DNA from: an uncultured Gemmatimonas sp. | GTDB lineage: Bacteria > Gemmatimonadota > Gemmatimonadetes > Gemmatimonadales > GWC2-71-9 | Length of the DNA stretch: 64,000 nucleotides | NCBI GenBank assembly: GCA_964535105.1 | Contig: CAZHSO010000003.1 | Span: 14,173 to 78,172 of the forward strand | Reading direction: 5' to 3' | In this document: piece by piece, positions 2,900-63,643 of the stretch | Layout of the letters: each line of letters opens with the position of its first letter | How positions within the stretch are numbered: the first letter of the stretch is position 1 | Program-made: the position numbers and the translations under genes | The notes under the pieces: generated by a model | The model's input: the letters and a program-made list of their open reading frames with translations, nothing else | Told to the model about the DNA's origin: nothing | Database searches by the model: none

Positions 2900-4141
2900 A
2901 TGCCCCTCACCTACGCTGACGCCCTCGCCTACCTCTATCCGCGCGTCACCCAGATCAAATTCGGGCTCGAGACCACCCGGGAGCTGCTCGCGCTCCTCGG
3001 GAATCCGCACGACCAGATTCCGGTGGTCCACGTCGGGGGAACCAACGGGAAGGGGAGCGTCACGGCGCTGGTGACGGCGGCGCTCCGCTCGGCGGGGTGG
3101 CGGGTCGGTGCGTACACCTCTCCGCACCTGGTCTCGTTCCGCGAGCGGATCATGGTCGACGGCGTCCCGATCGGGGAGGAGGCGGTGGCGATGTGGACGG
3201 CGCTCCTTCGGCACACCGCCGACGAGCTGGGAGCGACCTTTTTCGAGACGACCACGGCGATGGCGTTTGCCGACCTCGCCGCGCGGGGCGCGGAGATCGC
3301 GGTCATCGAGGTGGGCCTGGGCGGACGGCTCGACAGCACCAACGTGGTGCGCCCGGTCGCCAGCGTGATCACCAAGATCGAGATGGATCACCAGAAATAC
3401 CTGGGTGAGACCCTCGAAGCGATCGGCAGGGAAAAAGCATGGATTGCGAAGCCGGAGGCGCCGCTCGTCATCGGCGAGACCCGTCCGGCAGTCATCGAGG
3501 TGCTGCGAAGGGAAGCGGCGGCCTCGGTCACCTCGCTCGATCCGGCGGCTCAACCGGATGTGCGGATCGTCGGCCCGGAGGCGCGCTACGACGGCCCGCT
3601 CGCGCTCAAGGGCAATCACCAGCGGCGAAACGCGGCGGTCGCGGCCGAGGTGCTCCGGGCGCTTCCGTCGCCGTACCGGCCGGATGAGCGGGCGCTCCTC
3701 GAGGGGTTCGCGGCTGCCACAGTCCCTGGCCGGCTCGATCAGCGCGGCAAGTGGCTCTTCGACGTGGCCCACAATCCCGACGGGGTCGCGGCCCTTTGCC
3801 TGGCTCTCGCAGAGCTCAAGCCGCGCCGGCCGGTCCATGCGCTCGTGTCGATCCTCGGCGACAAGGCATGGCCCGACATGCTGGTGCAGCTCGACCGCGT
3901 GGTGGACCGGGGCGTGCTCACCGTGACGCCGAGCGCCGAGGGGCGGCGCTGGGATATCGAGTGGCTCAAGCGCTGGCTTCGCGATCCGGCCCGCCCTCCC
4001 GCCCGGGCGCACTGGCAGCTGATTCCAGACTTCGAGGAAGCGCTCGGGCGCGTGCAGCAGGGTGCGGGCACGGTGCTGGTGACCGGCTCTTTTCATACCG
4101 TGGGTGACGTGATGGAGGTTCTCGGGTTTCAACCCGTTTAA
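2900..4141 (+). CDS. folC: Bifunctional folylpolyglutamate synthase / dihydrofolate synthase
   Basis: Mur-ligase P-loop HVGGTNGKGS, 413 aa. The accD-folC adjacency is conserved in many bacteria, including E. coli. Confidence 0.9.
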   Translation: MPLTYADALAYLYPRVTQIKFGLETTRELLALLGNPHDQIPVVHVGGTNGKGSVTALVTAALRSAGWRVGAYTSPHLVSFRERIMVDGVPIGEEAVAMWTALLRHTADELGATFFETTTAMAFADLAARGAEIAVIEVGLGGRLDSTNVVRPVASVITKIEMDHQKYLGETLEAIGREKAWIAKPEAPLVIGETRPAVIEVLRREAAASVTSLDPAAQPDVRIVGPEARYDGPLALKGNHQRRNAAVAAEVLRALPSPYRPDERALLEGFAAATVPGRLDQRGKWLFDVAHNPDGVAALCLALAELKPRRPVHALVSILGDKAWPDMLVQLDRVVDRGVLTVTPSAEGRRWDIEWLKRWLRDPARPPARAHWQLIPDFEEALGRVQQGAGTVLVTGSFHTVGDVMEVLGFQPV

Positions 4142-4154
4142 CTGGAGGCTGGTG

Positions 4155-5399
4155 ATGCGAGGAACCTGGCTTGTGGGCGCCGTGATGATCAGTTCGGCGG
4201 CGTGCGGCAGGGGGAGCGACGCCGGTGGGGATGCCGTCACTCGGGATAGCGCCGGGGTGTCCATCGTGGAGAACAGCGGTTCCCAATGGCCGTCCGGCCA
4301 GGGATGGCGGGTGATCGACAGCGCGGTCGTGGACATCGGCGGGGATATCGACAGCGTGTCCGGGCCGGTCAGGCTCACGAACGGCAGCCTGGCGATCGCG
4401 AATGCCGGCACCCATGAGGTTCGGATCTACGACTCCAGCGGAGCGCACCTGCACACCTCCGGCCGCGCGGGAAGCGGACCCGGCGAATATCAGAACCTCG
4501 CGGGAATCTGGCTCGGCCCCGGCGATTCGATCCTGGTGTCCGACTTCCTGGTGCGGCGTCTCACGGTTCTCGACCCGGACGGGACCTTCCGCCGCTCCTT
4601 TTCGCTGGGCGGCGCGACAGGAACGATGCTCCCGACCGATGGACGGTTCGAGCTTGCGATCCCGCAGGGCTGGTTTGCCGACGGAAGCGTGGCGGGCGTT
4701 ACGATGAGCTTTGCCATCAACCAGACGCGCGAGGGCAGCTATCGTGACTCGGTGAGCGCGGTGCGGTACGGGCCTGATGGAATGGTGCGCGACACGCTCG
4801 GGAGGTTTCCCGGCGCCGAAATGGAGCAGGTGACTATGACGATGGGGGGCCAGTCGTTCTCGGCGCCCACCCCGGTTCCGCTGGGCCGGCAGAGCGTGGC
4901 CGTCGCGCACGGCGATCGATTCTATCTGGCGCAGAACAACGCCTGGGAAATCGAAGTGCGCCGGCTCGACGGGAAGCTGATTCGACTCATCCGGCTGGAC
5001 ACCAGGCCGGTGCCGATCACGCCCGACGATATTGCGGCACACCGCAAGTTCCAGCTCGAACAGATCAAAGGGATTCCCATGATGCGGAACATGCCCGAGG
5101 CGATCAGATCGCAGATCACGGCACGCATCGAGCAGGCAAAGTATCCCGCGACATTGCCGTTCGTGGGCGCATTGCTGATCGATGCCGAGGGGAACATCTG
5201 GGCCCAGGAGGTCCAGCCTCCCCGGATGGAGTCGAGCATCTTTGCGGTGGTGGATTCATCCGGCCGTTTGCTGGGACGGGTAACGATGCCGGCCAATTTC
5301 CGCGCCGCAACGATCGGGACCGACGCCGTGTACGGCGTCTGGAGGGATTCCGACGACGTGCAGCATGTTCGCGCCTACTCGCTCCGAAAGGGTCCCTGA
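4155..5399 (+). CDS. Hypothetical lipoprotein, beta-rich (possibly beta-propeller-like)
   Basis: GGAGG sits 6 nt upstream of the ATG at 4155. Signal peptide with a lipobox-like MISSAAC. Codon-position GC bias is consistent with coding. No catalytic motif recognised. Confidence 0.55.
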   Translation: MRGTWLVGAVMISSAACGRGSDAGGDAVTRDSAGVSIVENSGSQWPSGQGWRVIDSAVVDIGGDIDSVSGPVRLTNGSLAIANAGTHEVRIYDSSGAHLHTSGRAGSGPGEYQNLAGIWLGPGDSILVSDFLVRRLTVLDPDGTFRRSFSLGGATGTMLPTDGRFELAIPQGWFADGSVAGVTMSFAINQTREGSYRDSVSAVRYGPDGMVRDTLGRFPGAEMEQVTMTMGGQSFSAPTPVPLGRQSVAVAHGDRFYLAQNNAWEIEVRRLDGKLIRLIRLDTRPVPITPDDIAAHRKFQLEQIKGIPMMRNMPEAIRSQITARIEQAKYPATLPFVGALLIDAEGNIWAQEVQPPRMESSIFAVVDSSGRLLGRVTMPANFRAATIGTDAVYGVWRDSDDVQHVRAYSLRKGP

Positions 5400-17757: not shown

Positions 17758-17816
17758 GTAGCGAAGAGCGAGTAGCGAGGAGGGGAACGTCCTCTTCGCT
17801 CTTCGCTCTTCGCTAT
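17758..17816 (+). repeat. Stacked tandem-heptamer hairpin (AGCGARG x3 / CTTCGCT x3)
   Basis: The 24-position stem has 21 Watson-Crick pairs, 2 G.U pairs and 1 mismatch on the + strand. It starts about 10 nt after the tmRNA 3' end. Confidence 0.9.
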
Positions 17817-49863: not shown

Positions 49864-50314
49864 TCGCGGGCGCAAGGACGCGAAGACGCAAGGACAACAG
49901 CATGTCGTTGCGATCTCCGGTCGATCGGAGCCGCTCCGGCGCCCCGACGTCATTCGTGCGGTCGAGTCGGTGCTTCGCGGCGAGCGGCGCGAAGCGGCGA
50001 TCTCGGTGTCTTTCGTCGGGCGCGACCGGATGCGCGCGCTGAACGCCCGCTGGAAGCGGCGGCGGGAGCCGACCGACGTGCTCGCCTTCGCGCTGACCGA
50101 TCCGCGCGGCGCGCTCGCGGGTGACATCTACATCTGTCTCTGGGTCGCCTCCCGCGAGGCCCGGGCGCGCGGGATCCCATTTCGTCAGGAGCTGCTTCGT
50201 CTCGTGGTGCACGGCGTCCTGCACGTTCTCGGCTACGACCACCCCGCGGGGGCGGAGCGCACCGCGTCCGCGATGTGGCGCCGCCAGGAGCGGTACGTGC
50301 GGGGCGCGCGATGA
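49841..50314 (+). CDS. ybeY: rRNA maturation endoribonuclease YbeY
   Basis: Zn motif HGVLHVLGYDH and TDVLAF block. The only canonical in-frame start upstream of the first conserved strand is the ATG at 49841. That start overlaps phoH by 23 nt and reads through repeat array 49870-49897, so the start assignment is uncertain. Confidence 0.8.
   Translation: MLRTRTADRGRKDAKTQGQQHVVAISGRSEPLRRPDVIRAVESVLRGERREAAISVSFVGRDRMRALNARWKRRREPTDVLAFALTDPRGALAGDIYICLWVASREARARGIPFRQELLRLVVHGVLHVLGYDHPAGAERTASAMWRRQERYVRGAR
49870..49897 (+). repeat. Single-arm tandem 8-mer array (ACGCRAGG-type x3-4)
   Basis: gcgcaagg acgcgaag acgcaagg acaacagc, beginning 7 nt after the phoH stop. The unit is the same as in the first arm of hairpin 54045-54107. 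There is no complementary arm. Confidence 0.8.
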
Positions 50315-51516
50315 TTCCCTCCATCCTGTCGGCGCTTCAGCTTTGGGTCGCGCTCCTCGCCGGCCTGTTCACCCTGTGGGCCGCCGCCGTTTCCCTCGCC
50401 GAGCAGGATGACGCAGGAGTCCCCCGTCTCCTTACGCCATCGTCGGGCTCCTGGACGGGCCCGCTCCCCCCGGCGCGCAGCCTCCACGTCCTCCACCTCG
50501 CGTTGCTGGCCATCGCGGCGGCACTCGCCGGAACCGCGCTAGCCTGGTGGGCCTGGGCGCCCTCGGAAGCGCTCTTCCGGTACCTGCTTGCCGTCCTCCT
50601 TGTCTGGATCCTCGGGGAGGTTGCTCCCCGTCTCTGGGCGGCCAATGAGCCGGGATCGGTCAGCTTCGACGGACCATTCGTGCAGCACACGCTGACCCTC
50701 TTTCGGCCCCTCCTGAGCGCGGTGGCCTGGGTCGATCGCGGGTTTCGTCCCCGCCGCACCTCCCCTCGCGACAGCCAGATCGCGGAGCGCCAGATGCTGA
50801 CCGGCGTGCTCGCGCTCGCGGAAATGTCGGTGTCCGACGTGATGACGCCGCGGCTCGATGTCATGTCGGTCGATTTCTCCGCCTCGCGCGACAAGGTCAT
50901 CGAGACGTTTCGCCAGGCGGAGCACTCGCGCCTGCTGGTGGTGGATGGCGATCCCGATTCTGTGACGGGTGTGATCTATGCGAAGGATCTCCTCCCGGGT
51001 CTTGGCCCCGCCACCGGCCCGGCGGACTGGCATCCGCTGATCCGACCGGCGGAGGGAGTTCCCGAGGCAAAGACGCTCGACCGCCAGCTCCGGGATTTCC
51101 AGCGCAGCGGCAGCCATCTGGTGGTCGTGGTCGACGAGTTCGGCGGAACCTCGGGGATCGTGACGCTCGAAGATGTGCTGGAACAGATCGTCGGCGAAAT
51201 CCATGACGAGTACGATACCGATGAAGTGGCGCCGGTGCAGCGTCTCCCCGAAGGGGGCTGGGCAGTGCAGGGTGGGGTGTCGCTCGCCGATCTCGAGAGC
51301 GAGCTGGGCCACAGCTTCGCGCGCGAGGACGTGAGCACCGTCGGTGGTCTCGTGCTCGCGGCGCTGGGGCGGGTGCCTCGCGCCGGCGAGACGCTCACGC
51401 TCGACGGCTACCGCCTCACGGTGGATCAGGTCGCGCGCCGGCGCATCCGCCGGGTGACGTTGACGCCCGAGGTTCCGGCGGCGCCAGTCTCGGCTGCCAA
51501 GGAGCCGAGAACATGA
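50311..51516 (+). CDS. CNNM/CorC-family protein (DUF21 TM domain + CBS pair + CorC_HlyC)
   Basis: N-terminal TM region, CBS-pair region (VMTPRLDV...) and C-terminal transporter-associated domain. ATGA overlap with ybeY, in the canonical phoH-ybeY-corC order. Confidence 0.85.
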   Translation: MIPSILSALQLWVALLAGLFTLWAAAVSLAEQDDAGVPRLLTPSSGSWTGPLPPARSLHVLHLALLAIAAALAGTALAWWAWAPSEALFRYLLAVLLVWILGEVAPRLWAANEPGSVSFDGPFVQHTLTLFRPLLSAVAWVDRGFRPRRTSPRDSQIAERQMLTGVLALAEMSVSDVMTPRLDVMSVDFSASRDKVIETFRQAEHSRLLVVDGDPDSVTGVIYAKDLLPGLGPATGPADWHPLIRPAEGVPEAKTLDRQLRDFQRSGSHLVVVVDEFGGTSGIVTLEDVLEQIVGEIHDEYDTDEVAPVQRLPEGGWAVQGGVSLADLESELGHSFAREDVSTVGGLVLAALGRVPRAGETLTLDGYRLTVDQVARRRIRRVTLTPEVPAAPVSAAKEPRT

Positions 51517-52703
51517 TCTGGACCGTCGTCCTCCTCGGCCTGCTGCTGACGGTATTCGGCGCGACCACCGCCGCGGCCCTCATTACTTCGAGCCGAAGCC
51601 GGCTCGCCGAGGTCGTGGCGCGACGGCTTCGAGGGGGCAAGGATTCACTGGCCTGGCTCGCACCACTCGAGCGAGACCTCGCCGCGGCGTCGGTCACGAC
51701 GACGCTCGGGATTGCGATGCTCGGCGCGGTCTTCCCCGGTATTTTCGCCGGCGCGACGCTCCCGCGGCTCCTCCTTCTCCTGATCCTCCTGGCAATTCCC
51801 GCCGTGCTGTTGAGCGGCTACGTGCTCCCGCGCTTTCTCACCTACCGCCGCGCCGCGAGGGTCGCCGAGCATTGCCGCCCGATCCTGCGTCCCTGGGCCG
51901 CCGTGCTCGCTGGTATTCTCCCCGCGTCGAGGGTCCGCCCCGAGACGCTCATCACCGAGCTCTGGCGGGAGCGGGCGCGAAGCGGCGTTGCGCCGGACGA
52001 CGAGCTGCTCCGGGTCGGCGGGGTCATCAGCTTCTCCCAGCGCACAGTGCGCAGCGTCATGACACCGCGGACCGATCTCATCGCGCTTCCCGAGGAAGCA
52101 TCGGTCGAAGAGGTGCGTGCGGCGTTCGTCCAGAGCGGGTACACCCGCCTCCCGGTGTATCGCGGCACCATCGATGAAATGGTGGGCATGGTCCACGCCT
52201 TCGATCTCTTCCGTCTGGCCGCCGGCGATCCCCTCCCGGTCCGGCCGCTGGCGGTGGCGCCCGCGAGTCGGAGCTGCGGGGACGTGCTGCTCGACATGCA
52301 GCGGGAGCGGCGGCATCTCGCGATCGTCCTCGATGAGTTCGGCGGAACCCTCGGGATCGTGACGCTGGAAGATCTGCTCGAAGCGATGGTGGGAGAAATC
52401 GTGGACGAGGACGAGCCCGTCCGTGGCCCCACCGCAACCAATCCCGATCTCGTCGAGCTGGAGGGCGCCGTCCCGGTATCCGAGCTGGAGGAGCGTTTCG
52501 GGGTGAGCATGCCCGAGGGACAGGCGACGACCGTGGGCGGCCGTCTCGCCGAGCTGGCCGGGCGCTTTCCCGCGGCGGGGGAACGTTTCCTGATCCGCGG
52601 GCTCGAGTTCGATGTGCTCCAGGCTACCCGCACCCGGATCGAGCGCCTCCTCGTGCGGCGCGGCTCGCCCGCCTCCGTCCCGCTGGACCGGAGCGAGGCA
52701 TGA
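51513..52703 (+). CDS. Second CNNM/CorC-family protein (tandem paralogue)
   Basis: Same architecture as the preceding gene (TM region, VMTPRTDL CBS pair, CorC_HlyC). 4-nt overlaps on both sides. Confidence 0.85.
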   Translation: MIWTVVLLGLLLTVFGATTAAALITSSRSRLAEVVARRLRGGKDSLAWLAPLERDLAAASVTTTLGIAMLGAVFPGIFAGATLPRLLLLLILLAIPAVLLSGYVLPRFLTYRRAARVAEHCRPILRPWAAVLAGILPASRVRPETLITELWRERARSGVAPDDELLRVGGVISFSQRTVRSVMTPRTDLIALPEEASVEEVRAAFVQSGYTRLPVYRGTIDEMVGMVHAFDLFRLAAGDPLPVRPLAVAPASRSCGDVLLDMQRERRHLAIVLDEFGGTLGIVTLEDLLEAMVGEIVDEDEPVRGPTATNPDLVELEGAVPVSELEERFGVSMPEGQATTVGGRLAELAGRFPAAGERFLIRGLEFDVLQATRTRIERLLVRRGSPASVPLDRSEA

Positions 52704-54043
52704 TCAAGAAGCCGCTGGCGCCGGCCAGGATGCTCGGGCTGCTGCGCGAGGGAAACGTGAGCGAGTTCTTCGCGCGGGCCCGGATGCTCGAGCCGGCGGA
52801 TCTCGCCGATGTGCTGGCCCTGGCGGATGAGGACGAGCGGGTCGAGATCGCCAAGCTGTTGCCGCCCGATCTCACCGGCGAGGCGCTGGTCGCGATGCCG
52901 GACGTGGAGCACGCGGAGGATACCCTCGCGGCGCTGACCACTGAACAGGCGGCCGAGATCGTCGGGGAGATGCCCGACGACGATGCGGCCGACATCCTCG
53001 GCGAGCTGGAGCCGGAGCAGCAGCAGCGGATCCTCTCGGCGGTAGAGCCGGAGGAGCGCCGCACCGTCGAGCGACTGCTCGAGTACGACGAAGAATCTGC
53101 CGGCGGCCTGATGACCGGGGCGATGGTCACCGTGAATGAAGACGAAACGGTGCGCGACGCCCTCGAGAACATCCGGAAGCAGGCCGAAGACGTCGAAGAG
53201 TTTGCCGAAGTGTACGTGCTCGACCGAAATCGCAGGCTTCTCGGCATTCTGGGCTTCAAGCAGCTGGTCCTCGGGGCGCCCGACCGCCCGGTCCGTGAGT
53301 TGATGCAGGAGCCTGACGTGACGGTCGGGCCTGAAATGGATCAGGAAGAGGTCGCACGCCTGATGGCACGCTACAACGTGCCCAGCATTCCCGTCGTGGA
53401 CCGGGACGGTCGCTTGCTCGGCCGGATTACCTTCGACGACGTGTCCGACGTGGTCGAGATGGAAGCGACGGAAGACCTCCTGCGGTTCGGCGGTGTCTCC
53501 GCCACCGAGGACCTCGGCGCCCGCTGGTTCGAGGCGGTGAAGACCCGGCTCCCCTGGCTGCTCGTCAACCTCGTCACCGCCTTCGCCGCTGGAGGGGTCG
53601 TCGCCTATTTTCAGTCGAACCTCAGCCGTTTCATCGCGCTCACGGTGTGGATGCCGGTCATCGCTGGCATGGGCGGCAACACCGGTACCCAGGCCCTTGC
53701 GGTCACCGTACGGCGCCTGGCCCTGGGGCTGATCTCGCGCGACGATTTTCGCCGAGTTATCACGAAGGAAGTTCTCGTTGGCGTGACGAACGGGCTCGCC
53801 ATCGGCGCGGTGGCGACCGTCGTCGCCCTCCTCACCGGCATGTCGGCGATGTTCGGGCTGCTCGTGTTTCTCGCCATGACCGGGAACCTCTTCGTCGCGG
53901 GTCTTGCCGGCGCCGCGATCCCGCTCCTCCTCAAGCGGTTCAACATCGATCCCGCCATCGCGTCGTCCATTTTCGTGACCGCCTTCACCGATGTCTGCGG
54001 GTTTGCGCTGCTCCTTGGGCTGGGGGGGCTTCTTCTGTTATAA
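52700..54043 (+). CDS. mgtE: Magnesium transporter MgtE
   Basis: MgtE N-domain, CBS pair and a C-terminal 5-TM domain with GMGGNTGTQ. Confidence 0.93.
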   Translation: MIKKPLAPARMLGLLREGNVSEFFARARMLEPADLADVLALADEDERVEIAKLLPPDLTGEALVAMPDVEHAEDTLAALTTEQAAEIVGEMPDDDAADILGELEPEQQQRILSAVEPEERRTVERLLEYDEESAGGLMTGAMVTVNEDETVRDALENIRKQAEDVEEFAEVYVLDRNRRLLGILGFKQLVLGAPDRPVRELMQEPDVTVGPEMDQEEVARLMARYNVPSIPVVDRDGRLLGRITFDDVSDVVEMEATEDLLRFGGVSATEDLGARWFEAVKTRLPWLLVNLVTAFAAGGVVAYFQSNLSRFIALTVWMPVIAGMGGNTGTQALAVTVRRLALGLISRDDFRRVITKEVLVGVTNGLAIGAVATVVALLTGMSAMFGLLVFLAMTGNLFVAGLAGAAIPLLLKRFNIDPAIASSIFVTAFTDVCGFALLLGLGGLLLL

Positions 54044-54044
54044 G

Positions 54045-54107
54045 ACACAAGGACGCAAGGACGCAAAGTGAACCACCTTGCGTCTTTGCGTCTTTGCGTC
54101 TTTGCGC
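54045..54107 (+). repeat. Stacked tandem-octamer hairpin (ACRCAARG x3 / CTTTGCGT x4)
   Basis: acacaagg acgcaagg acgcaaag - tgaaccac - cttgcgt ctttgcgt ctttgcgt ctttgcgc. It starts 1 nt after the mgtE stop and ends 13 nt before the meaB ATG. The unequal unit number allows alternative pairing registers. Confidence 0.9.
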
Positions 54108-54120
54108 CTTACCTTTCAGC

Positions 54121-55194
54121 ATGGATCTCGACACGCTCATCGCCGACCTCGCCGCGGGCCGGACTGCCGCGTTGGCGCGCGCGATTTCCGTCGTGGAAAA
54201 CGGGCGGCCGGGCTTCGAGCAGCTCCTCGCCGCGGTGCATCCGCGCCTCGGCCAGGCGCACCGGGTCGGCATCACCGGCCCGCCCGGCGCGGGGAAGTCG
54301 ACCCTCACCCGGCAGCTGGTCCAGGCCTGGCGCGAGCGGGGATACACCGTGGCCGTCGTGGCCGTCGATCCCACCAGCCCCTTCTCGGGAGGCGCGCTGC
54401 TCGGCGACCGGATCCGCATGGAATCGGTCGCGATGGATCGCGGCGTTTATATCCGGTCGATGGCGACGCGAGGCTCGCTCGGCGGTCTCGCCACCACCAC
54501 CCGCGAGGTATGCGACGTCCTCGATGCGGGGGGATTTCAGCGCATCCTGATCGAGACCGTGGGCGTGGGGCAATCGGAGCTCGCGGTCACCGGAATGGCC
54601 GATTCCACCGTGCTTCTGTTGGTCCCCGAATCGGGCGACGCCATTCAGACCCTCAAGTCGGGTGTGATGGAAGCGGCGGACCTGTACGTCGTCAACAAGG
54701 CGGACCGCCCCGGCGCGGACCAGCTCGCGCGCGAGATCGAGGTGACCCTCGGCATCCGAATGGGCAATGCGTTCCGGGGGATGAAGGTGCACCACGGTGT
54801 GGACCCGCAGGGCGCGGCGCACGGGAAGGAGGCAAGGAGGCAAGGAGGAAAAGAGGCATCGGGGCAAGACCCCGTTGCCGCTCCGGCCTGGGAGCATCCG
54901 GTGCTCCTTACCTCCGCGGTGAAGGGCGAAGGCACCGAGGCGCTGGTCGAGGCGCTCGAGCAGCACTACCGCTGGATGCAGGAGACCGGCGAGCTCGCCG
55001 CGCGCCGGACCAAGCGGCTCGCCGCGCGCACGCGCGAAGTGGTGGACCGGTCGGTCCATTGGTGGATCTGGCAGGAGACCCGCGCCGAGGAGCTCCTGCG
55101 CGAGCGCCTCGACGACCTCGCTGCCGGGCGAATCAGTCCCTACGAGCTCGCATCTGACATCGTGGCCGGTTTGAAGGAAGGAGCGCGGGTATGA
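54121..55194 (+). CDS. meaB: Methylmalonyl-CoA mutase-associated G-protein chaperone MeaB/ArgK
   Basis: Walker [10 protein letters not shown] and G4 motif NKAD, followed directly by the mutase gene. It contains an in-frame repeat-derived insertion between G4 and the TSA (G5) motif. Confidence 0.9.
54823..54885 (+). repeat. AGGCAAGG-family repeat element embedded in frame inside meaB
   Basis: gggaagg aggcaagg aggcaagg aggaaaag aggcatcg gggcaagaccccgttgccgctcc. The units are those of 17290-17348, and its agaccccgttgcc matches the agaacccgttgcc loop flank there in 12 of 13 positions. The second arm is degenerate. Confidence 0.8.
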
Positions 55195-56858
55195 GTGCAC
55201 GCGACGCGGAGCTCGAGCGGCTGCGGGCCGAGGTGGCGGCGTGGCGGGCAGCATACGGAAAGTTGCCGCTGCGCCGGGACGTCGAATTCAGCAGCGTCTC
55301 CGGGCGCCCGGTCGAGCCGGTGTACACCCCAATCGACCTCGCAGGCACGCTCGGGGATCCCGGCGAGCTGCCGGGAATCTGGCCCTTCACGCGTGGGATT
55401 CATCCCACGATGTTCCGCGGAAAATTGTGGACGATGCGGCAGTTCGCCGGCTTCGGCACGGCGGAGGACACCAATCGGCGCTACAAGTTTCTGCTGGAGC
55501 GCGGGCAGACGGGCTTGTCCGTGGCGTTCGATTTCCCCACGCTGATGGGATACGACTCCGACCATCCGCGCTCCGAGGGCGAGGTGGGCAAGTGCGGCGT
55601 CGCGATTTCCAGCCTGGCCGACATGGAGACGCTCTTCGACGGGATTCCGCTCGACCGTGTCTCCACCTCCATGACGATCAACGGTCCCGCGGCGATCCTG
55701 TTCTGTTTTTACGTGGCGGCGGCCGAGCGGCAGGGGGTGGATATCCGGAAGCTTCAGGGGACGGTGCAGAACGATATCCTCAAGGAGTACATGGCGCAGC
55801 ACGCGTGGGTCTATCCGCCAGAGCCCGCGCTCAAGATCATCGTGGACATGTTCGAGTGGGCGGCGGAGCACACTCCGCAGTGGAACACGATTTCGATCTC
55901 CGGGTATCACATCCGTGAGGCGGGAGCCACCGCGACCCAGGAGCTGGCGTTCACGCTCGCCAACGGCTTTACCTACATCGAGCGCGGCGTCGCGCGCGGC
56001 CTGGCGGTCGACACCTTTGCGCCGCGCCTCTCGTTCTTCTGGGACGTGCATAACGATTTCTTCGAGGAGATCGCCAAGATGCGCGCCGCCCGCAGGATCT
56101 GGGCGCGCCATCTCCGCGAGCGCTACGGGGCGCGGGACGAGCGCAGCTGGAAAATGCGGTTCCACTGCCAGACCGCCGGGGTCACCCTCACCGCCCAGCA
56201 GCCGATGAACAACATCGTCCGGGTCGCGTACCAGGCGCTGGCGGCCGTGCTGGGGGGAACCCAGTCGCTGCACACCAACGCGCTCGACGAGACGCTTGCC
56301 CTCCCCACCGAGGAATCGGTGCGCATCGCGCTTCGCACGCAGCAGATCCTGGCCGCGGAAACCGGCGTCCCCAACACCGCCGATCCGCTGGGCGGATCCT
56401 ATTACGTCGAAGCGCTCACCGACCAGATGGAGCGCGAGGCCGAAGCGCTCTTCGCGGACATCGAGGCGCAGGGGGGCGTTGTCCCCGCGATCGAGTCGGG
56501 GTGGTTCCAGCGCCAGATCGCCCAGAGTGCCGCGCGCTTCCAGTCGGAGCTCGAGAGCGGGCGGCGCGTCATCGTCGGCGTGAACGATTTCGTCGAAGAG
56601 GAGACTGCCCCGCCGGAGATCCTCCGCATCGGCGATGACGCCGACCGGGTACAGCGCGGCCGCATGGCGCGACTCCGCGCCGAACGGGACGGAACCCGGG
56701 TGGAAGCGGCCCTCGCCGTGCTCCACGCGGCCGCCGTTGCCGACCGCAATGTGATTCCCGGGATGATGGATTGCGCCCGCGCCTTTTGCACCCTGTTCGA
56801 GATTCGCGAGGTGCTCGAGCGGGTGTACGGCGCCTACCGCGAGCCGGTCTTTTTCTAG
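55191..56858 (+). CDS. Methylmalonyl-CoA mutase family, large (substrate-binding TIM barrel) subunit
   Basis: [59 protein letters not shown] is typical of split acyl-CoA mutases. ATGA overlap with meaB. Confidence 0.9.
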
Positions 56859-56867
56859 GAGCGGCCG

Positions 56868-58031
56868 ATGGCATCGCGTGCGCTGACCGAGATCCGGCGC
56901 CAGCTCCAGCGGCTGGTGCGGCTGCCTGCGGGCAAACACTGGATCGTGAGCTGTTACCTCAAGCTGGAGCCGCGCGATCGCTCGCGGGGGAAGTACCTGA
57001 TCAAGCTCAAGAATCGCGTCCGCGAGGTGATCGAGGCGCTTCCCGCGGAAGGCCTCGACCGCCAGGAGACAGAGCAGGTGATCGGTGATCTGCACAAGCT
57101 TCAGGTGATGCTGCAGCGGCCTGACGCGCTGCCGCCGACGCAGGGGCTGGCCGTCTTCGTCTCCAAACCACTCGGCCTCTTCGAGATCATTCCGCTCCCG
57201 CGGGTGCATCGCTCCCGTCTGCTGGTGGACCGGACAGCGCTGGTGCGGGAGCTCGCCGCGCTCGAGGATGAAGTGGGCCGTCTCCTGCTCGCGGAAGTGG
57301 ACAAGAGCGGGGCGACGATTTACGAAGTCACGGCGTTCGAAGCGAAGAAAATCGCCGACATCGAAGCCACCGCCCGGAAAGGCGGCCGCTTCCACAGCGA
57401 CCGGCACGAGGCGCCAGGCAAAGGGGAGCACGGGTTCCATAACCGGCTCCGGCATGAGCGGGACCAGCTCTTCGACGCCGTCGCCGCGCGGCTCTTCGAC
57501 CTGGACCGCCGGGAGCCCGTCCGGGGGATCGTGCTCGCCTCGGCGGGCAACGAGGCCGATTCGCTCCGGATGTTTCTCCACCCGTACATCGCCGGCAAGG
57601 TCGTCGGCACCGCGCGGATGGCGCGACGGAAGGCGTCGATCGCCGATGTGCACGCGACCGCGCTCGAAGTCCGGGAGACGTTCGAGCGGAAGCTGGAGCG
57701 GCACCTGGTCGCCGAAATGCTCCTGGGGCAGGGCTCCGGCTGGGCCGTGAATGGCATCGGGGCCACGCTCGATGCGCTCGCCAAGGGGCAGGTGCGCACG
57801 CTGCTCGTGCGCGCCGATGCGAGCGTGCCGGGCTTCCGCTGCGGTGCGACCGGGAAGCTCACGCTCAATGCCCGGGATTGCCGGAGCCTCGGAGAGGCAA
57901 TCCCGGTTCCCGATGTGATCGATGATTCGATAGAGGAAGCGCTGCGCCAGCGGATCGACCTCGACGTGGTCTTCGAGCCCGATGCGGCGGAGACGATCAA
58001 CGGCGTGGCGGCGTTGCTCCGGTTTAGATAG
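56868..58031 (+). CDS. Bacterial eRF1/Pelota-superfamily (baeRF-like) protein
   Basis: 387 aa. N-terminal [10 protein letters not shown] block. The central segment [12 protein letters not shown]...[16 protein letters not shown] aligns by eye with the eRF1 segment [25 protein letters not shown], giving GGR in place of GGQ. The C-terminus [10 protein letters not shown] is like eRF1 domain 3. GGAG sits 7 nt upstream of the ATG. Confidence 0.7.
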
Positions 58032-58094
58032 CGAAGAGCGAAGAGCGAAGTGCGAAGAGGTGGTTCCGCTTCGCTCCTCGCTCTTCGCTCCTCC
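58030..58094 (+). repeat. Stacked tandem-heptamer hairpin (AGCGAAG x4 / CGCTYCT-type x4)
   Basis: agcgaag agcgaag agcgaag tgcgaag agg - tggttc - cgcttcg ctcctcg ctcttcg ctcctcc. It overlaps the TAG stop of the eRF1-like gene. The unit is the same as in hairpin 17758-17816. Confidence 0.9.
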
Positions 58095-58110
58095 CTGCGG
58101 AAGGAGATCT

Positions 58111-58519
58111 GTGGCGGCACCTCGAACCCGACCGATCAGGATCCTCGTCGCCAAGCCCGGCCTCGATGGCCACGACCGTGGCGCCAAGGTGGTCGCGGCG
58201 GCCCTGCGGGACGCGGGGATGGAAGTCATCTATACCGGGCTGCATCAGACCCCGGAGATGATCGCGACCGCGGCAGTCCAGGAGGACGTGGACGTCGTGG
58301 GTCTCTCGATCCTGAGCGGCGCGCACATGACGCTCTTTCCCCGGGTCCGCCAGCTTCTCGACGAGATGGGCCGCACGGACGTCCTCCTTACCGGCGGCGG
58401 CATCATTCCCCGCGGGGACATCGAGGCCCTGCAGCAGCGCGGGGTGGGCCGCCTCTTCGGGCCGGGCACTCCCACCACGGAGCTCATTCGGTACATCAAC
58501 ACCTGGGCGGCCGCGCATC

Positions 58520-58530
<11 letters not shown>
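58111..58530 (+). CDS. Methylmalonyl-CoA mutase family, small B12-binding subunit
   Basis: B12-binding DxHxxG motif ([10 protein letters not shown]). GTG at 58111 is preceded by GGAAGGAG. The track ORF extension upstream runs through the hairpin and was rejected. Confidence 0.88.
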
Positions 58531-60146
<1,616 letters not shown>

Positions 60147-60166
<20 letters not shown>

Positions 60167-63023
60167 GAGACGGCGCGCCTGGCGAGCGCTCGCGGCACTC
60201 GCCACCCTCGCGGCCTGCGCGACGACGAAGACGGCTGGCCCGGGCGGCCCTACGCCACAACCGGTGCGCGCCGCGGTCGTCGTGGCGGATAGCCCGCCCG
60301 CCACCCCACCCGCACCGACGCGGAATCCTCCTCCCATTCTGCGTCGCCCGATCGTTCCGGCGGCGGTCGCGCATGCCCGGGGATGGATGCCTCGGGAAGC
60401 GACCGGAACTTCCGCCTTCCTCGCCGCGCACCCTCTCTGGGACGGTCGCGGCGTGCTGCTCGGCATACTCGACAGCGGCCTGGATCCCGGCGTCGCGGGC
60501 TTCGACACCACCACGACGGGCCGGGCCAAGGTGCTCGACCTCCGGGATTTCTCGGGTGAAGGAAGAATTCCGCTGACGGTGGCGGTGCTTCGCGGTGACA
60601 CGCTCCTCGTGGCGGGCCGTCGCCTCACCGGGGTGAGCCGGGTGCGCGGCATCGTCGGTGGCGGCTCGCTCTTCGCCGGGGTGTTTCGCGAGAGGCCGCT
60701 CGGCGAGGCGCCGGCTTCCGATGTCAACGACAACGCGACCGACTCCGATTCGCTGGCGCTCCTGGTCGGGAAGGCGAGCGACGGCTGGGTGCTCTTTGCC
60801 GATACCGACGGCGACGGCTCTCTCGCCAACGAGCGTCCCGTGCATGACTACCTCGACGGCCGGGAGACCTTCGGCTGGCATCGCGGTGGCGAGCCGCCGC
60901 CGCTCACGGTCGCGGTCAACTTCACCGAAGGTCCCTCGGCCCCGCAGCTCGATCTCTCCTTCGATACCAGCGGCCACGGGACCCACGTCGCGGGGATCGC
61001 GGCGGCGCGCGGAATCGGAGGGGTGACGGGATTCGATGGCGCCGCCCCCGGGGCGCAGCTCCTGGGACTCAAGATCGCCCGCAACGACTTCGGCGGCATC
61101 ACCACCACGGGCAGTGTGCTCGCGGCGATGGATTACGCCATCCGGTTTGCCGCGGCCCGGGGCATGCCGGTCGTGTTGAACATGAGCTTCGGCGTCGGGA
61201 ATGCGAGGGAAGGCGCCGCCCGGATCGATCAGCTCATCGACTCGGTGCTCACCGCCCATCCCGAGGTGATATTCGTGACGTCCGCGGGGAACGACGGCCC
61301 CGGAATGTCGACAATGGGGTTTCCGGGCTCCTCCCTCCGCGCGATTACGGTCGGCGCCACCGAGCCGGCGGCGCTGTCGGATGCGATGATTCTCACCGGT
61401 CGCGCGGGTCCCGACCTGCTGATGTTCTTCAGCTCGCGCGGCGGCGAGCTTGCCAAGCCGGACCTGGTCGTCCCCGGCATCGCCTATTCGACGGTGCCGC
61501 GCTGGGACACCGGCGAGGAGATCAAGGCGGGAACGAGCATGGCATCGCCCCATGTCGCTGGCATCGCCGCCGTGCTCGCGTCGGGGGCGCTCGCAGAGCG
61601 CAGGACAATCACCGCGGACGATATGCGGCGCGCGCTCACCGGCAGCGGGCGCTCCGTGACCGGGGGGACGCTGATCGATGCCGGTGCCGGCGTGCCGGAG
61701 GTTTCGAAGGCCTGGTCGATTCTTCGTAGCCCGGCGCCCCCCGCCGAGTTCGACGTCGAGGCGGTCGAATCTCCCGGCTCGACGGCGGCATTCCGCATCG
61801 CCCCGGCGCCCGCGGACACCGTGGTGCGTTTCCGCATTACGCGGCGTCGTGGAACGGGGCCGGTCGACGTTGCGCTCGCGAGCGACGCCGACTGGCTTAT
61901 CGCGCCGAAACGAATCCGGCTCGACGGTCCCATAACCGAGCTCACTCTGATCCAGCGGCCGCCGACAAAGCCCGGAGAGCATGTGGGCGGCGTGCGCGCC
62001 ACGGCAGCCGGTGTTGCGGGACCTCTCTTCACGCTGGTGAGCACCGTGGTGGTACCCGAGTCGGGCCGGGTCGCACCGGTGCGGGTGACCGAGCGACTCC
62101 CCCTGGGAGCGGCGCGCCGGGTCACCTTTCCCTCCGACTCCGGGCGGCCGTTTCAGGTTCGAATCGCCACCACTTCACCCAAAGAGCGGCTGATTGCGGC
62201 CCTGTACCTTCCCGGCGGAGAGCCGATTCCGGGAGACAATGGTGTCCCGGGCGGTCCCGACACCGCGGCCGCGGTGTTCGACATCGACGGGCGCGACGCA
62301 CGAGACGGATGGTATGAAGCGGTGGCGGTCACGACCTCAAGAGGCCCCGTTACCGCGGAGCTCACGGTCGAGTATGCGCCAGTTGCGCTCTCCGTCACCC
62401 GCCCATCGAGCGATTCGATGACGACGACGCTGCGCGCCCTGACCGATTCCGCAGTGAGCGGGCGGCTCCGCGTCGGTCTGATCGGCGGGGAGGGGCGCCT
62501 GGTGATGACCGGGTCGGGAGGGCCGGATGTCTCGGTACCTGTCTCGCTGCCGACATGGGTCCGCCGCATCGTGATCGATCTCGAGCTCGATGCCGAGCTC
62601 TGGCCGCGATTCACCGATCTCGGCTTCACGTTGGTCGATTCCGAAGGGCGTATCCTGGGAAAGAACCCCGTCAATTATCCGAGCGCCCGGCTGACGATCG
62701 ATCTCCCCACGCAGACCGGTGACGAGACCGCGATGCTGGTGCTCTCCCCCGCGTTCGCCGAACCGGGCAGCGCTGAATCGTGGTCGGCTCGCATCACGAT
62801 CCGGGTCGAGGCCGAAGGGGCGCTCAACCTCGGCACGGCTGAGGGCGAAGAGTTTTCGCTGCGGCCGATGGAAACCAGAACATTCCGCAGCCGGGTTGGC
62901 GAGCTTCCCTGGCAGCTTCCCGAGGGTTTCGCGCCGCTCGGTTTATTCCTCCTCGAGAGCGCCGGCACCATCTGGTCATGGGAGCGTGCCCTCGAGCGCC
63001 CGATGCCGGGTGTGAAGCGGTGA
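60147..63023 (+). CDS. Large S8 (subtilisin-like) serine peptidase lipoprotein
   Basis: Lipobox LATLAAC. Catalytic triad motifs GILDSGLD (Asp), HGTHVAGIAAA (His) and GTSMASPHVAGIAA (Ser). Long C-terminal beta-rich extension. Its start overlaps the preceding gene by 20 nt. Confidence 0.88.
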
Positions 63024-63643
63024 CCCGGCCGCGGCTCGAATCGTACACGCGGGACGGAGGGCTCTTCCTGACCCTGCGCGTCGGATTCGGGCCGCTCGAC
63101 GCCGGGTTTCTCGACGAGGTCGATTGGGCGCTCCAGCACGCCGACCTCGACTCCACCGTCGCATGCGTAGTACTCCGGATCGTCCAGCCTCCCGGTGCCT
63201 CGAACCCCCGCGCGCCGGATCACTTCCCCGGTGACGTGATCGCCGACCGCCGGCGTCTCGATGCATCCATCCGCGCGGCGCGACGGATTCCCAAGCTCCT
63301 GGTTCTGCTGCTTGACGGAACCCTCGCGGGGGAAAGCATCGGGCTGCTGGCCCTCGCCGACGTCGTGCTGGCGACGACCGAGAGCGTCCTCCGGCCCGGC
63401 TCGGTTGCCGCGGCCCTGCTCGGAATGGTCCCCGTCCTCGAGCGGAGGAGCGATGGGGTCCGTCACGCCCTGGTCTGCATTCTCGAGGGAGGTGATCTCG
63501 ATGCCCATGCGGCGCGGCATCACGGACTGGTGACCGACGTGCTCCCCGCCGACCGGCTCGAGCCGGTTGTCGATGCGCTGCTTCGGGGCGTCGCGAGCGC
63601 GGGCCCGACGGGCGTCGCGCTACTCAAGGGTGCGGTGAAATGA
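63020..63643 (+). CDS. Divergent crotonase-fold (enoyl-CoA hydratase/isomerase-like) protein
   Basis: GTG in a GTGA overlap with the peptidase stop. The pattern VACVVLRI...KLLVLLLDGTLAGESIGLLALADVVLAT resembles a crotonase core, but the oxyanion-hole glycines look degenerate. Confidence 0.5.
   Translation: MTRPRLESYTRDGGLFLTLRVGFGPLDAGFLDEVDWALQHADLDSTVACVVLRIVQPPGASNPRAPDHFPGDVIADRRRLDASIRAARRIPKLLVLLLDGTLAGESIGLLALADVVLATTESVLRPGSVAAALLGMVPVLERRSDGVRHALVCILEGGDLDAHAARHHGLVTDVLPADRLEPVVDALLRGVASAGPTGVALLKGAVK

Follow-up and report, generated by a model that had tools for sequence, protein, structure and literature searches.

A Balon-type aeRF1-fold protein encoded within an acyl-CoA mutase operon of Gemmatimonadales, a candidate ribosome hibernation factor

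Bacterial proteins of the baeRF-1/Balon clade, homologs of the archaeal and eukaryotic release factors aRF1 and eRF1 (aeRF1), were described by computational analysis in 2019, and experimental work followed in 2024. Members of baeRF-1 never replace RF1 or RF2, and adjacency of baeRF genes to HPF has been noted (PMC6514570). Balon was defined as a bacterial aeRF1 homolog of at least 300 amino acids (aa) with three domains and without the NIKS and GGQ motifs; the loop of its N domain that carries the HP motif contacts A1492/A1913, and the stress-response contexts of Balon genes include RaiA/HPF, RtcB, and Hsp20 (PMC10901736). A chimeric HPF beside Balon was reported in a preprint. Here, we describe a member of this clade encoded in a 64,000-nucleotide stretch of DNA from an uncultured Gemmatimonas sp. 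(contig CAZHSO010000003.1; the whole stretch is referred to below as the window). It is the product of gene X, an ATG-to-TAG open reading frame (ORF) of 387 aa located at 56868–58031 on the forward strand, between the genes for the two subunits of a B12-dependent acyl-CoA mutase.

To our knowledge, Balon-type factors were recognized only in 2024, and just three of them, from Proteobacteria and Actinobacteria, have been studied. X is an uncharacterized addition to the known baeRF-1/Balon clade. The puzzle of an "eRF1 without GGQ" is already explained, and the only unexpected element is the order-wide embedding of the gene in an acyl-CoA mutase operon. We interpret X, with a probability of roughly 0.68, as a noncatalytic hibernation factor of the Balon type that binds the A site and is transcribed together with a catabolic operon.

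Family and predicted fold of X

Residues 126 to 269 of X matched the Pfam family PF18854 (baeRF_family10) with 29.7 bits (E = 9e-7), above the gathering threshold of 27.1. The same family was matched by 75/75 diverse relatives of X (best E = 1.9e-46), and the precomputed PF18854 label is present on nearly all X homologs. When the three validated Balons, their sequences rebuilt from printed alignments, were scanned against Pfam, Msmeg1130 was assigned to baeRF_family10 (124.6 bits), Rv2629 to family 2, and Psychrobacter Balon to family 3. As judged by Pfam profile, X is thus in the same family as Msmeg1130, a hibernation factor validated by cryo–electron microscopy (cryo-EM).

A plain phmmer search of X against the Protein Data Bank (PDB) returned Rv2629 as the sole, marginal match (E = 0.11), and a family profile was therefore required. 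The profile, made from a 75-sequence alignment and searched against the PDB, matched ribosome-bound Msmeg1130 over its full length (8v9j_z; E = 7e-35). Next came archaeal aRF1 (4af1; E = 6e-25), Rv2629 (E = 2e-18), a second aRF1 (3agk; E = 7e-17), Psychrobacter Balon (8rd8_B; E = 1e-15), eRF1s (E of about 1e-14), and Pelota (E = 2e-13). In NCBIfam, X also matches, full-length yet weakly, the three "ribosome hibernation factor" models, whose names refer to MSMEG_1130, Rv2629, and Psychrobacter Balon (AOC03_06830). The equivalogs NF052287, NF052288, and NF052289 gave 43.3, 35.3, and 42.3 bits against cutoffs of 330, 480, and 320 bits, respectively (the 480-bit cutoff being that of the MSMEG_1130 model), and none of the 75 relatives comes close to any of them. 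Because the equivalog cutoffs are missed by an order of magnitude, X is, by these models, not an ortholog of any of the three validated Balons.

The AlphaFold2 model of X, built on the 75-sequence family alignment, has a mean predicted local distance difference test score (pLDDT) of 93.6 and a predicted template modeling (TM) score of 0.86; the sole stretch below 90 lies at residues ~170 to 190. A Foldseek search with this model gave 47 PDB matches at E ≤ 1e-3, nearly all of them aeRF1-superfamily chains. The top match was Msmeg1130 (8v9j_z; E = 5e-22, TM of 0.76/0.81, root mean square deviation of 3.8 Å). TM scores were 0.69 to 0.74 for Psychrobacter Balon, 0.64/0.67 for Rv2629, about 0.5 for aRF1/eRF1, and about 0.35 to 0.43 for Pelota. 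Since the scores are higher for Balons than for aRF1, eRF1, or Pelota, the domain arrangement of the model appears akin to the ribosome-bound state of Balon rather than to a release factor. The three-domain architecture of the aeRF1 superfamily was recovered by both profile and structure, and X, a protein of more than 300 aa without NIKS and GGQ, corresponds to the operational definition of Balon. Taken together, the Pfam, profile, and Foldseek E-values put the similarity well outside what chance would give.

Secondary structure of the model and the aRF1 alignment delimit an N-terminal domain at aa 1 to 125 (56868–57242). It is followed by a central RNase H–like "M" domain at aa 126 to 270 (57243–57677), the region of the Pfam match, and by a C-terminal Pelota/L7Ae-like domain at aa 271 to 387 (57678–58028), which ends in GVAALLRFR and is supported by the Balon and aRF1 alignments and by the model. 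All three lie on the forward strand. An earlier sequence-only reading of the locus had pointed to three places of release factor likeness, VSCYLKLEP, FHNRLRHER, and GVAALLRF, and all three were reproduced in our hidden Markov model (HMM) alignments to aRF1 and Balon. Its assignment of X to an eRF1/Pelota-like baeRF family is borne out by Pfam, profile, AlphaFold2, and Foldseek results. The profile search and structural superposition that it had proposed yielded a Pfam match above cutoff and a best match to the Balon Msmeg1130; the kinship with Balon, the closest characterized relative by profile, structure, and Pfam, had not been drawn.

Relatives of X are numerous. Among 8000 candidates scored from a 90%-clustered database, 2187 were related at E ≤ 1e-3, and clustering at 50% left 1275 representatives. 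The closest are from metagenome-assembled genomes (MAGs) of Gemmatimonadales, where public annotation calls them "hypothetical protein" (NCBI) or uses the misleading name "peptide chain release factor subunit 1" (JGI).

Lost motifs and conserved loops

The NIKS motif is absent from X: in the profile alignment, SNIKSKQ of aRF1 falls opposite residues ~58 to 66 (AEGLDRQ). As for GGQ, the sequence-only reading had proposed that it is replaced by GGR, and here our result differs. The positional equivalent of GGQ is P183-G184-K185, since the GQ of aRF1 and that of Msmeg1130 both lie opposite G184-K185 in the two HMM alignments. In addition, G184 precedes F190 by six residues, as the GQ glycine of aRF1 precedes the F of RFARLR by six, and in the model the helix that follows the loop on the side of the peptidyl-transferase center (PTC) starts at residue 186. 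The GGR (residues 172 to 174) lies 12 residues upstream, inside this loop, which spans aa 168 to 190 (57369–57437, forward strand) as delimited by the pLDDT dip and the aRF1 alignment and exceeds the aRF1 loop by about 9 residues. Nor is GGR conserved: close relatives have RKAGR, RKSGR, RRGRR, TRGTR, or TRGKR instead.

Residues 160 to 190 of X contain no Gln. The position equivalent to the catalytic Gln is variable across the family (W, Y, V, S, R, or K) and is K in X. Because the catalytic Gln is absent, peptidyl-tRNA hydrolysis in the manner of eRF1 is unlikely for X, and the doubts that the sequence-only reading had voiced about such an activity were justified. The 2019 survey reported that family 10 keeps a "well-conserved glutamine" in the catalytic loop that is possibly catalytic (PMC6514570); this Gln has no counterpart in X and its clade. 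An aRF1-like SGQRFAR is present at the canonical position in 1 of the 75 aligned relatives, the distant member P0263. Considered together with the 2019 paper, this sequence suggests that some members of family 10 may still be catalytic.

X itself could be a catalytic release or rescue factor that uses the conserved expanded loop instead of GGQ. The clade shows high conservation of the loop pattern R-G-G-R-F-H-x-D-R … P-G-x-G-E, something unusual among baeRF families that are inactive. Burroughs and Aravind named family 10 potentially active (PMC6514570), and the SGQRFAR of one distant member points the same way. However, the lack of any Gln in the loop region, the K at the aligned position where relatives have W, Y, V, S, or R, the extra loop length relative to aRF1, and the fact that validated Balons leave the PTC inert make a catalytic X very improbable. 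The PTC-side loop, which shows lower pLDDT, aligns with the long non-GGQ ("lasso") loop of Balon, and G184, G186, and E187 within it are invariant.

In the N domain, a loop at aa 33 to 43 (56964–56996, forward strand), delimited by the alignment to 8rd8_B, aligns without gaps and at equal length to THREHPANDQD of Psychrobacter Balon (VSIFVK-THREHPANDQD-PIALKN). With its LEPRDR sequence, it lies in the most conserved N-domain block of the X clade. The Psychrobacter stretch holds the sole HP dipeptide of the aligned N-terminal part, and we take it to be the "HP motif" of Balon, the presumed site of decoding-center contact. E34 to R38 are invariant in the close clade of X.

The C domain contains a β insert at aa 318 to 347 (57819–57908, forward strand), recognized from the model and from the CxxC…CxxC pattern of distant members. 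In X it is a decayed zinc ribbon of which only C325 and C338 are left, in agreement with the degenerate Zn-ribbon insert described in 2019 (PMC6514570). The insert is located at the site of the EF-Tu–facing insert of Balon and has the same length as in Msmeg1130.

The closest relatives outside the mutase-linked clade form a sister clade with 35 to 46% identity to X and other genomic contexts. When 21 mutase-linked and 23 sister-clade sequences were compared, 34 positions were conserved with the same residue in both, including the putative ribosome-contact loops. Among them are R38, Y43, G184, G186, E187, R193, E197, G322, C325, G329, C338, and R385. Only four positions conserved in the sister clade are relaxed in the mutase-linked one. 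The loops are thus under strong purifying selection, and because 34 conserved positions are shared and only four are relaxed, the molecular function of X has most likely remained unchanged despite its altered genomic context.

The acyl-CoA mutase operon and the contexts of X relatives

X is part of a row of closely packed, co-directional genes on the forward strand. The first is a MeaB-type G-protein chaperone gene (54121–55194; Pfam MeaB, 293.6 bits), which overlaps by 4 nt the gene of the large, substrate-binding mutase subunit, HcmA/IcmA-like by Pfam and NCBIfam (55191–56858). The start codon of X is 9 nt past the stop of the large-subunit gene, and a GGAG Shine-Dalgarno sequence, read from the DNA at 56858–56861, is located 6 nt upstream of X and overlaps the large-subunit TAG. 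X is followed by a hairpin and by the small, B12-binding subunit gene (58111–58530; Pfam B12-binding, 92 bits; TIGR00640, 174 bits), whose inferred GTG start at 58111 follows an AAGGAG. The last gene, for a carboxyltransferase (β) subunit of acyl-CoA carboxylase of the MCC-β/AccD1 type (58520–60166; Pfam Carboxyl_trans, 433 bits), overlaps the B12-subunit gene by 11 nt. The location of a 387-aa gene between two B12-mutase subunit genes, as stated in the sequence-only reading, is therefore confirmed by the ORF and by the Pfam and NCBIfam matches of its neighbors. Given the 9-nt and overlapping junctions, it is nearly certain that X shares a transcript with the genes of the mutase and the carboxyltransferase. 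A terminator scan found none at the X junctions, and a sigma-70 promoter scan found nothing. Neither a cobalamin riboswitch nor any other Rfam family was detected between 49.5 and 61 kb, where chance miRNA-like matches fell on hairpins only. No homologs of HPF, DUF4342, or HAD proteins were found in the window by tblastn.

The top PDB relative of the large subunit is HcmA (4r3u_A), a subunit of 2-hydroxyisobutyryl-CoA mutase (HCM; 577 bits), followed by human methylmalonyl-CoA mutase (MCM; 528 bits) and Propionibacterium shermanii MCM (489 bits). At the pocket positions Tyr89/Arg207 (P. shermanii numbering), which are Tyr/Arg in all MCM chains and Ile/Gln in HCM, the window protein has Phe/Gln (RQFAGF and MAQHAW). 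With F/Q instead of Y/R, the enzyme is probably not a methylmalonyl-CoA mutase, the label it had been given before. The F/Q pair would be that of isobutyryl-CoA mutase (ICM); a search of the literature on mutase specificity residues gave nothing relevant. The observation that the mutase is encoded by two genes was correct; the splitting is not in itself noteworthy. IcmA/IcmB and HcmA/HcmB are normally two-gene enzymes, so the split mutase represents the native state. In a ranking of PDB chains, the carboxyltransferase scored 314 to 395 bits against methylcrotonyl-CoA carboxylase β, AccD1, and geranyl-CoA carboxylase β, versus about 258 bits against classical propionyl-CoA carboxylase β and 233 against the 12S transcarboxylase. 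Because an HcmA-like F/Q mutase is combined with a carboxyltransferase of the MCC-β type, the operon looks like one of branched-chain (leucine) acyl-CoA catabolism rather than of the methylmalonyl pathway. An enoyl-CoA hydratase–like ORF is present further along the window, at 62978–63643.

Relatives of X were scanned in one genome per GTDB species, which yielded 454 loci (numbered with the prefix L). Synteny was counted in the best 80 of these, from Gemmatimonadales/Gemmatimonadota MAGs with 51 to 97% identity to X, and neighbors were detected by tblastn with the neighboring proteins of the window. The mutase large subunit was found directly upstream of X in 77/80 loci, and the B12 subunit was downstream in all 65 loci with enough flank. 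In 32 of these 65, the B12 gene is immediately adjacent to X; in another 32, the more distant half, it follows a ~700-nt gene for a HAD-IA hydrolase (NCBIfam; 7164–7841 in L027), which is absent from the window. The order large subunit–X–B12 subunit, whose conservation the sequence-only reading had suggested to examine, thus holds in Gemmatimonadales and reaches homologs of 46 to 47% identity (L091). The position of X is ancient and fixed since the base of the Gemmatimonadales clade. A recent horizontal insertion is rejected, since the G+C content of X is the same as that of its neighbors and the synteny is order-wide; the hitchhiking insertion listed among the explanations of the sequence-only reading fails on the same conserved arrangement. 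So does the outcome that it had named as a refutation, a gene absent here in all relatives and flanked by insertion scars.

In the three exceptions (L035, L060, and L072), X, the B12 subunit gene, and the carboxyltransferase gene are retained and no large-subunit gene is adjacent. IcmF is a fusion of isobutyryl-CoA mutase with a GTPase. In two of the exceptions, a divergently transcribed gene for a full-length fused IcmF lies upstream on the reverse strand (L035, 1308–4775; L072, 1451–5047; NCBIfam, 1731 to 1736 bits, cutoff of 1500). In L060, there are only weak MeaB- and mutase-like matches on the opposite strand. The B12 small subunit of these three loci has no visible partner nearby.

Such a constant neighborhood raises the possibility that X is tied to the mutase, whether as a chaperone for its assembly or repair, by regulating the MeaB GTPase, or by setting the ratio in which the two subunits are expressed. 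The retention of the position (77/80 upstream and 65/65 downstream, from 97% to about 46% identity) and the IcmF genes that adjoin X in the exceptions (confirmed in L035 and L072) speak for such a tie, as does the fact that aeRF1-family proteins usually partner with GTPases and MeaB is a GTPase. However, MeaB is of the SIMIBI G3E type, whereas aeRF1 proteins bind translational GTPases, which are not related to it. Median identity among the loci is 55% for X, while the large and B12 subunits reach 82% and 84%, respectively. Half of the loci have an unrelated HAD-IA hydrolase in this slot as well, and our literature search found no paper that joins an X-type factor to a mutase.

Two further kinds of loci bear on this question. 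In L083 and L084, where X is 51% identical, the region is syntenic with the window (identities of 50% for CorC, 57% for MgtE, 73% for the carboxyltransferase, and 44% for an S8 peptidase) and lacks the MeaB, large-subunit, and B12 genes; X lies 36 nt upstream of the same carboxyltransferase. A rough neighbor-joining tree, computed without support values, places the L083 lineage inside the mutase-linked clade and the B12-linked relative P0122 outside. This nested position suggests that the mutase genes were lost or moved from the L083 lineage while X remained. The second kind are sister-clade loci, where proteins with the same 34 conserved residues are encoded in RtcB-HPF operons. Since X occurs without the mutase in L083/L084 and in other contexts in the sister clade, shares its conserved residues with the latter, and occupies a slot that tolerates passengers, it does not appear to be tied to the mutase, and the three roles named above are improbable. 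Among the three explanations offered by the sequence-only reading, a translation factor co-expressed with the mutase comes closest to our results, while we found nothing in favor of a moonlighting chaperone.

The slot between the subunit genes accepts both the HAD hydrolase gene and REP (repetitive extragenic palindromic)–like hairpins, and X evolves faster than its neighbors, as could be expected if X were a functionless passenger or a decaying remnant between inseparable genes. This idea is barely tenable: no locus examined has a truncated or broken X, there are 2187 homologs and dozens of invariant residues, the predicted fold is very confident, and X is kept where the mutase genes are gone.

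In the hairpin that follows X (58030–58096), tandem AGCGAAG units and their complement make up arms of 31 nt. A second hairpin of AGCGAAG units is located at 17759–17816, and a third one, with the unit AAGGACGC, fills the mgtE-meaB spacer (54042–54103). In each case, the arms consist of tandem 6- to 8-nt units and the inverted complement. At the X-B12 junction, a hairpin of like build is present in about half of the close relatives (L001, L002, L003, L008, L011, L012, L014, L019, and L022), with a unit that differs from genome to genome (GGTGGCA, GGATTCA, GGGAAGA, GGTCAGT, and others) and folding energies down to −80 kcal/mol; in the other half, the junction is tight and has no hairpin. The hairpins lack a T-run, and none belongs to an Rfam family. 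For the one at 58030–58096, we considered a terminator and the scar of an insertion and rejected both, given the missing T-run, the absence of the hairpin from half of the relatives, the genome-specific units, and the copies elsewhere in the window. Their build from tandem units is unusual, and they look like REP-type elements that are specific to each species. The repeat hairpin noted earlier right after the gene is thus real; it is a variable REP-like passenger and not a conserved part of the system.

Sister-clade genes are found in different surroundings. In L086 (2188–3929), the X homolog is immediately followed by an S30AE(HPF)+CSD gene, and L092 (919–5040) has the order S30AE+CSD–…–DUF4342–X–MgtE. 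DUF4342 and FtsH are encoded near the X homolog in L088 to L090, and further loci contain two-component systems, hydrogenase genes, and CBS proteins. DUF4342, present in L088 to L090 and L092, is the second recurrent neighbor of these homologs. A metagenome scan of the sister clade gave 80 loci, 69 of them with at least 1 kb of flank. HPF and/or CSD was near X in 18/69, and the B12 subunit was directly downstream in 7. Two loci at first scored as CSD only (L115, 1891–5179; L137, 1457–4810) are RtcB–S30AE+CSD–baeRF_family10 operons, as confirmed by Pfam; the homologs in this kind of operon are about 41 to 45% identical to X. The HPF of the sister clade is a chimera with a C-terminal CSD. These contexts agree with the published ones, which include RaiA and RtcB (PMC10901736).

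The adjacency to the RNA-repair ligase RtcB would also fit a noncatalytic rescue or splitting factor of the Pelota/Dom34 kind that recycles stalled or damaged ribosomes. X has the aeRF1-superfamily fold and, like Dom34, no catalytic Gln, and rescue or conflict roles were proposed for baeRF-1 proteins in 2019 (PMC6514570). Against this, the TM scores are about 0.35 to 0.43 to Pelota versus 0.64 to 0.81 to ribosome-bound Balons, and the RtcB operons of the sister clade carry HPF too. The only family 10 member studied, Msmeg1130, acts as a hibernation factor (PMC10901736). We therefore consider a Pelota-like role of X unlikely.

Genes for Mg2+ transport (two CorC/CNNM-like genes and MgtE) are located just upstream of the operon in the window (50275–54043) and likewise upstream in the mutase-less syntenic locus L083/L084 (1–2614). 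In L092, an MgtE-like gene overlaps the stop of the X homolog (4018–5040). Mg2+ homeostasis affects ribosome stability. A recurrent tie of X-type factors to Mg2+ homeostasis may exist; chance is the alternative.

Proposed role and comparison with known systems

By homology to the cryo-EM structures of Msmeg1130, Rv2629, and Psychrobacter Balon, we infer for X ribosome binding, a partnership with EF-Tu, and a physiological trigger. Under starvation or stress, X would enter the A site without reading mRNA, whether the ribosome is vacant or translating. The decoding center would be touched by the basic loop of the N domain (LEPRDR…), the PTC would be left inert, and the β insert of the C domain would face EF-Tu(GDP), which would stabilize X. 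The expected outcome is that ribosomes are silenced and protected in starvation. X would be produced whenever the mutase/carboxyltransferase module is induced, in co-regulation with a branched-chain module of the starvation type. Its slot would be maintained because the flanking subunit genes must stay together, and X would have no biochemical role in the mutase.

The order-wide placement could, alternatively, reflect a direct coupling of X to the mutase rather than mere co-regulation. X could be made in fixed proportion to the catabolic enzyme so that ribosome silencing follows flux, or it could have gained a role directed at the mutase or MeaB while the ribosome-binding surfaces were retained. 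This idea stays alive because a mutase gene, split or IcmF, adjoins X in every Gemmatimonadales locus examined. We nevertheless regard it as rather unlikely.

Several observations weigh against X being a hibernation factor of the Balon type. Its NCBIfam scores of 35 to 43 bits are far under the equivalog cutoffs of 320 to 480, its identity to the validated Balons is just 14 to 19%, and the Gemmatimonadota homologs are known from sequence alone. X is basic (isoelectric point of 9.35; net charge of +10 in the N domain), whereas both computed Balon fragments are acidic. The HP dipeptide is not present in X, where D37-R38 lie opposite; Msmeg1130 likewise has no HP there. Family 10 was flagged as possibly catalytic in the 2019 analysis (PMC6514570). 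Last, X does not lie in an operon of the classical stress or hibernation kind, and it is very closely tied to mutase genes, with IcmF adjoining even in the exceptions, so an unseen functional link to the mutase could exist.

The locus adds to the few studied Balons a large, uncharacterized, soil-abundant clade of Gemmatimonadota, represented by 454 loci in genomes and by over 2000 protein clusters. If the hibernation role is correct, a function would be assigned to this clade, and hibernation factors would be seen to occur as part of a catabolic operon instead of one for stress. This would hint at how slow-growing soil bacteria might couple ribosome storage to a switch toward amino acid and fatty acid catabolism. 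The two sister clades, with the same residues in RtcB-HPF and in mutase operons, provide a natural comparison for asking whether context alters regulation and not mechanism. The practical consequence, improved annotation, is modest. The mutase-operon context is not mentioned in the Balon and baeRF accounts consulted (PMC10901736, PMC6514570, and the preprint).

Among known systems, Msmeg1130 (MSMEG_1130; PDB 8v9j/8v9l) is closest to X, being in the same Pfam family and the top match by both profile and structure. The two proteins have the three aeRF1 domains, lack NIKS and GGQ, carry C-domain inserts of equal length, and share the C-terminal ending G-x-A-A-x-L-R-[FW]. They differ in that identity is about 18 to 19% and X reaches 35 bits against a 480-bit equivalog cutoff. 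The PTC-side loop is longer in X and has a conserved motif of its own, and X retains two Cys of a Zn ribbon that has degenerated. While the Msmeg1130 fragment is mildly acidic, X is a basic protein, and the Msmeg1130 gene is hypoxia induced, while X is in a mutase operon. Psychrobacter urativorans Balon (AOC03_06830; PDB 8rd8/8rdv/8rdw) shares with X the ribosome-bound architecture, an N-domain loop of equal length and position (with HP in Balon), and a long non-GGQ loop on the PTC side. It belongs to baeRF_family3, is 14% identical to X, and has HREHP where X has EPRDR. Rv2629 of Mycobacterium tuberculosis (PDB 8v9k), a member of baeRF_family2, has the same fold and a very similar C-terminal domain; the overall match is weaker.

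The release factors aRF1 and eRF1 (4af1, 3agk, and 1dt9) are homologous to X over all three domains. aRF1 aligns with X at the N-terminal strand, the Arg-rich helix after the PTC-side loop, and the C-terminal LRF motif, and the Zn ribbon of 4af1 is located where X has its C-domain insert. In contrast to these factors, X has no NIKS, GGQ, or catalytic Gln, its loop is longer by 9 residues, and its domains are arranged differently (TM of about 0.5). Pelota/Dom34 is of the same superfamily and, like X, noncatalytic and without the Gln, but it is more distant in both profile and structure. Its N domain is Sm-like, with loop A reaching into the mRNA channel, while that of X aligns with the aRF1/Balon type. 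Finally, the published baeRF-1 genes of RtcB/HPF operons correspond in context and loop motifs to the sister clade of X, and the X clade has swapped that context for an acyl-CoA mutase/carboxyltransferase operon.

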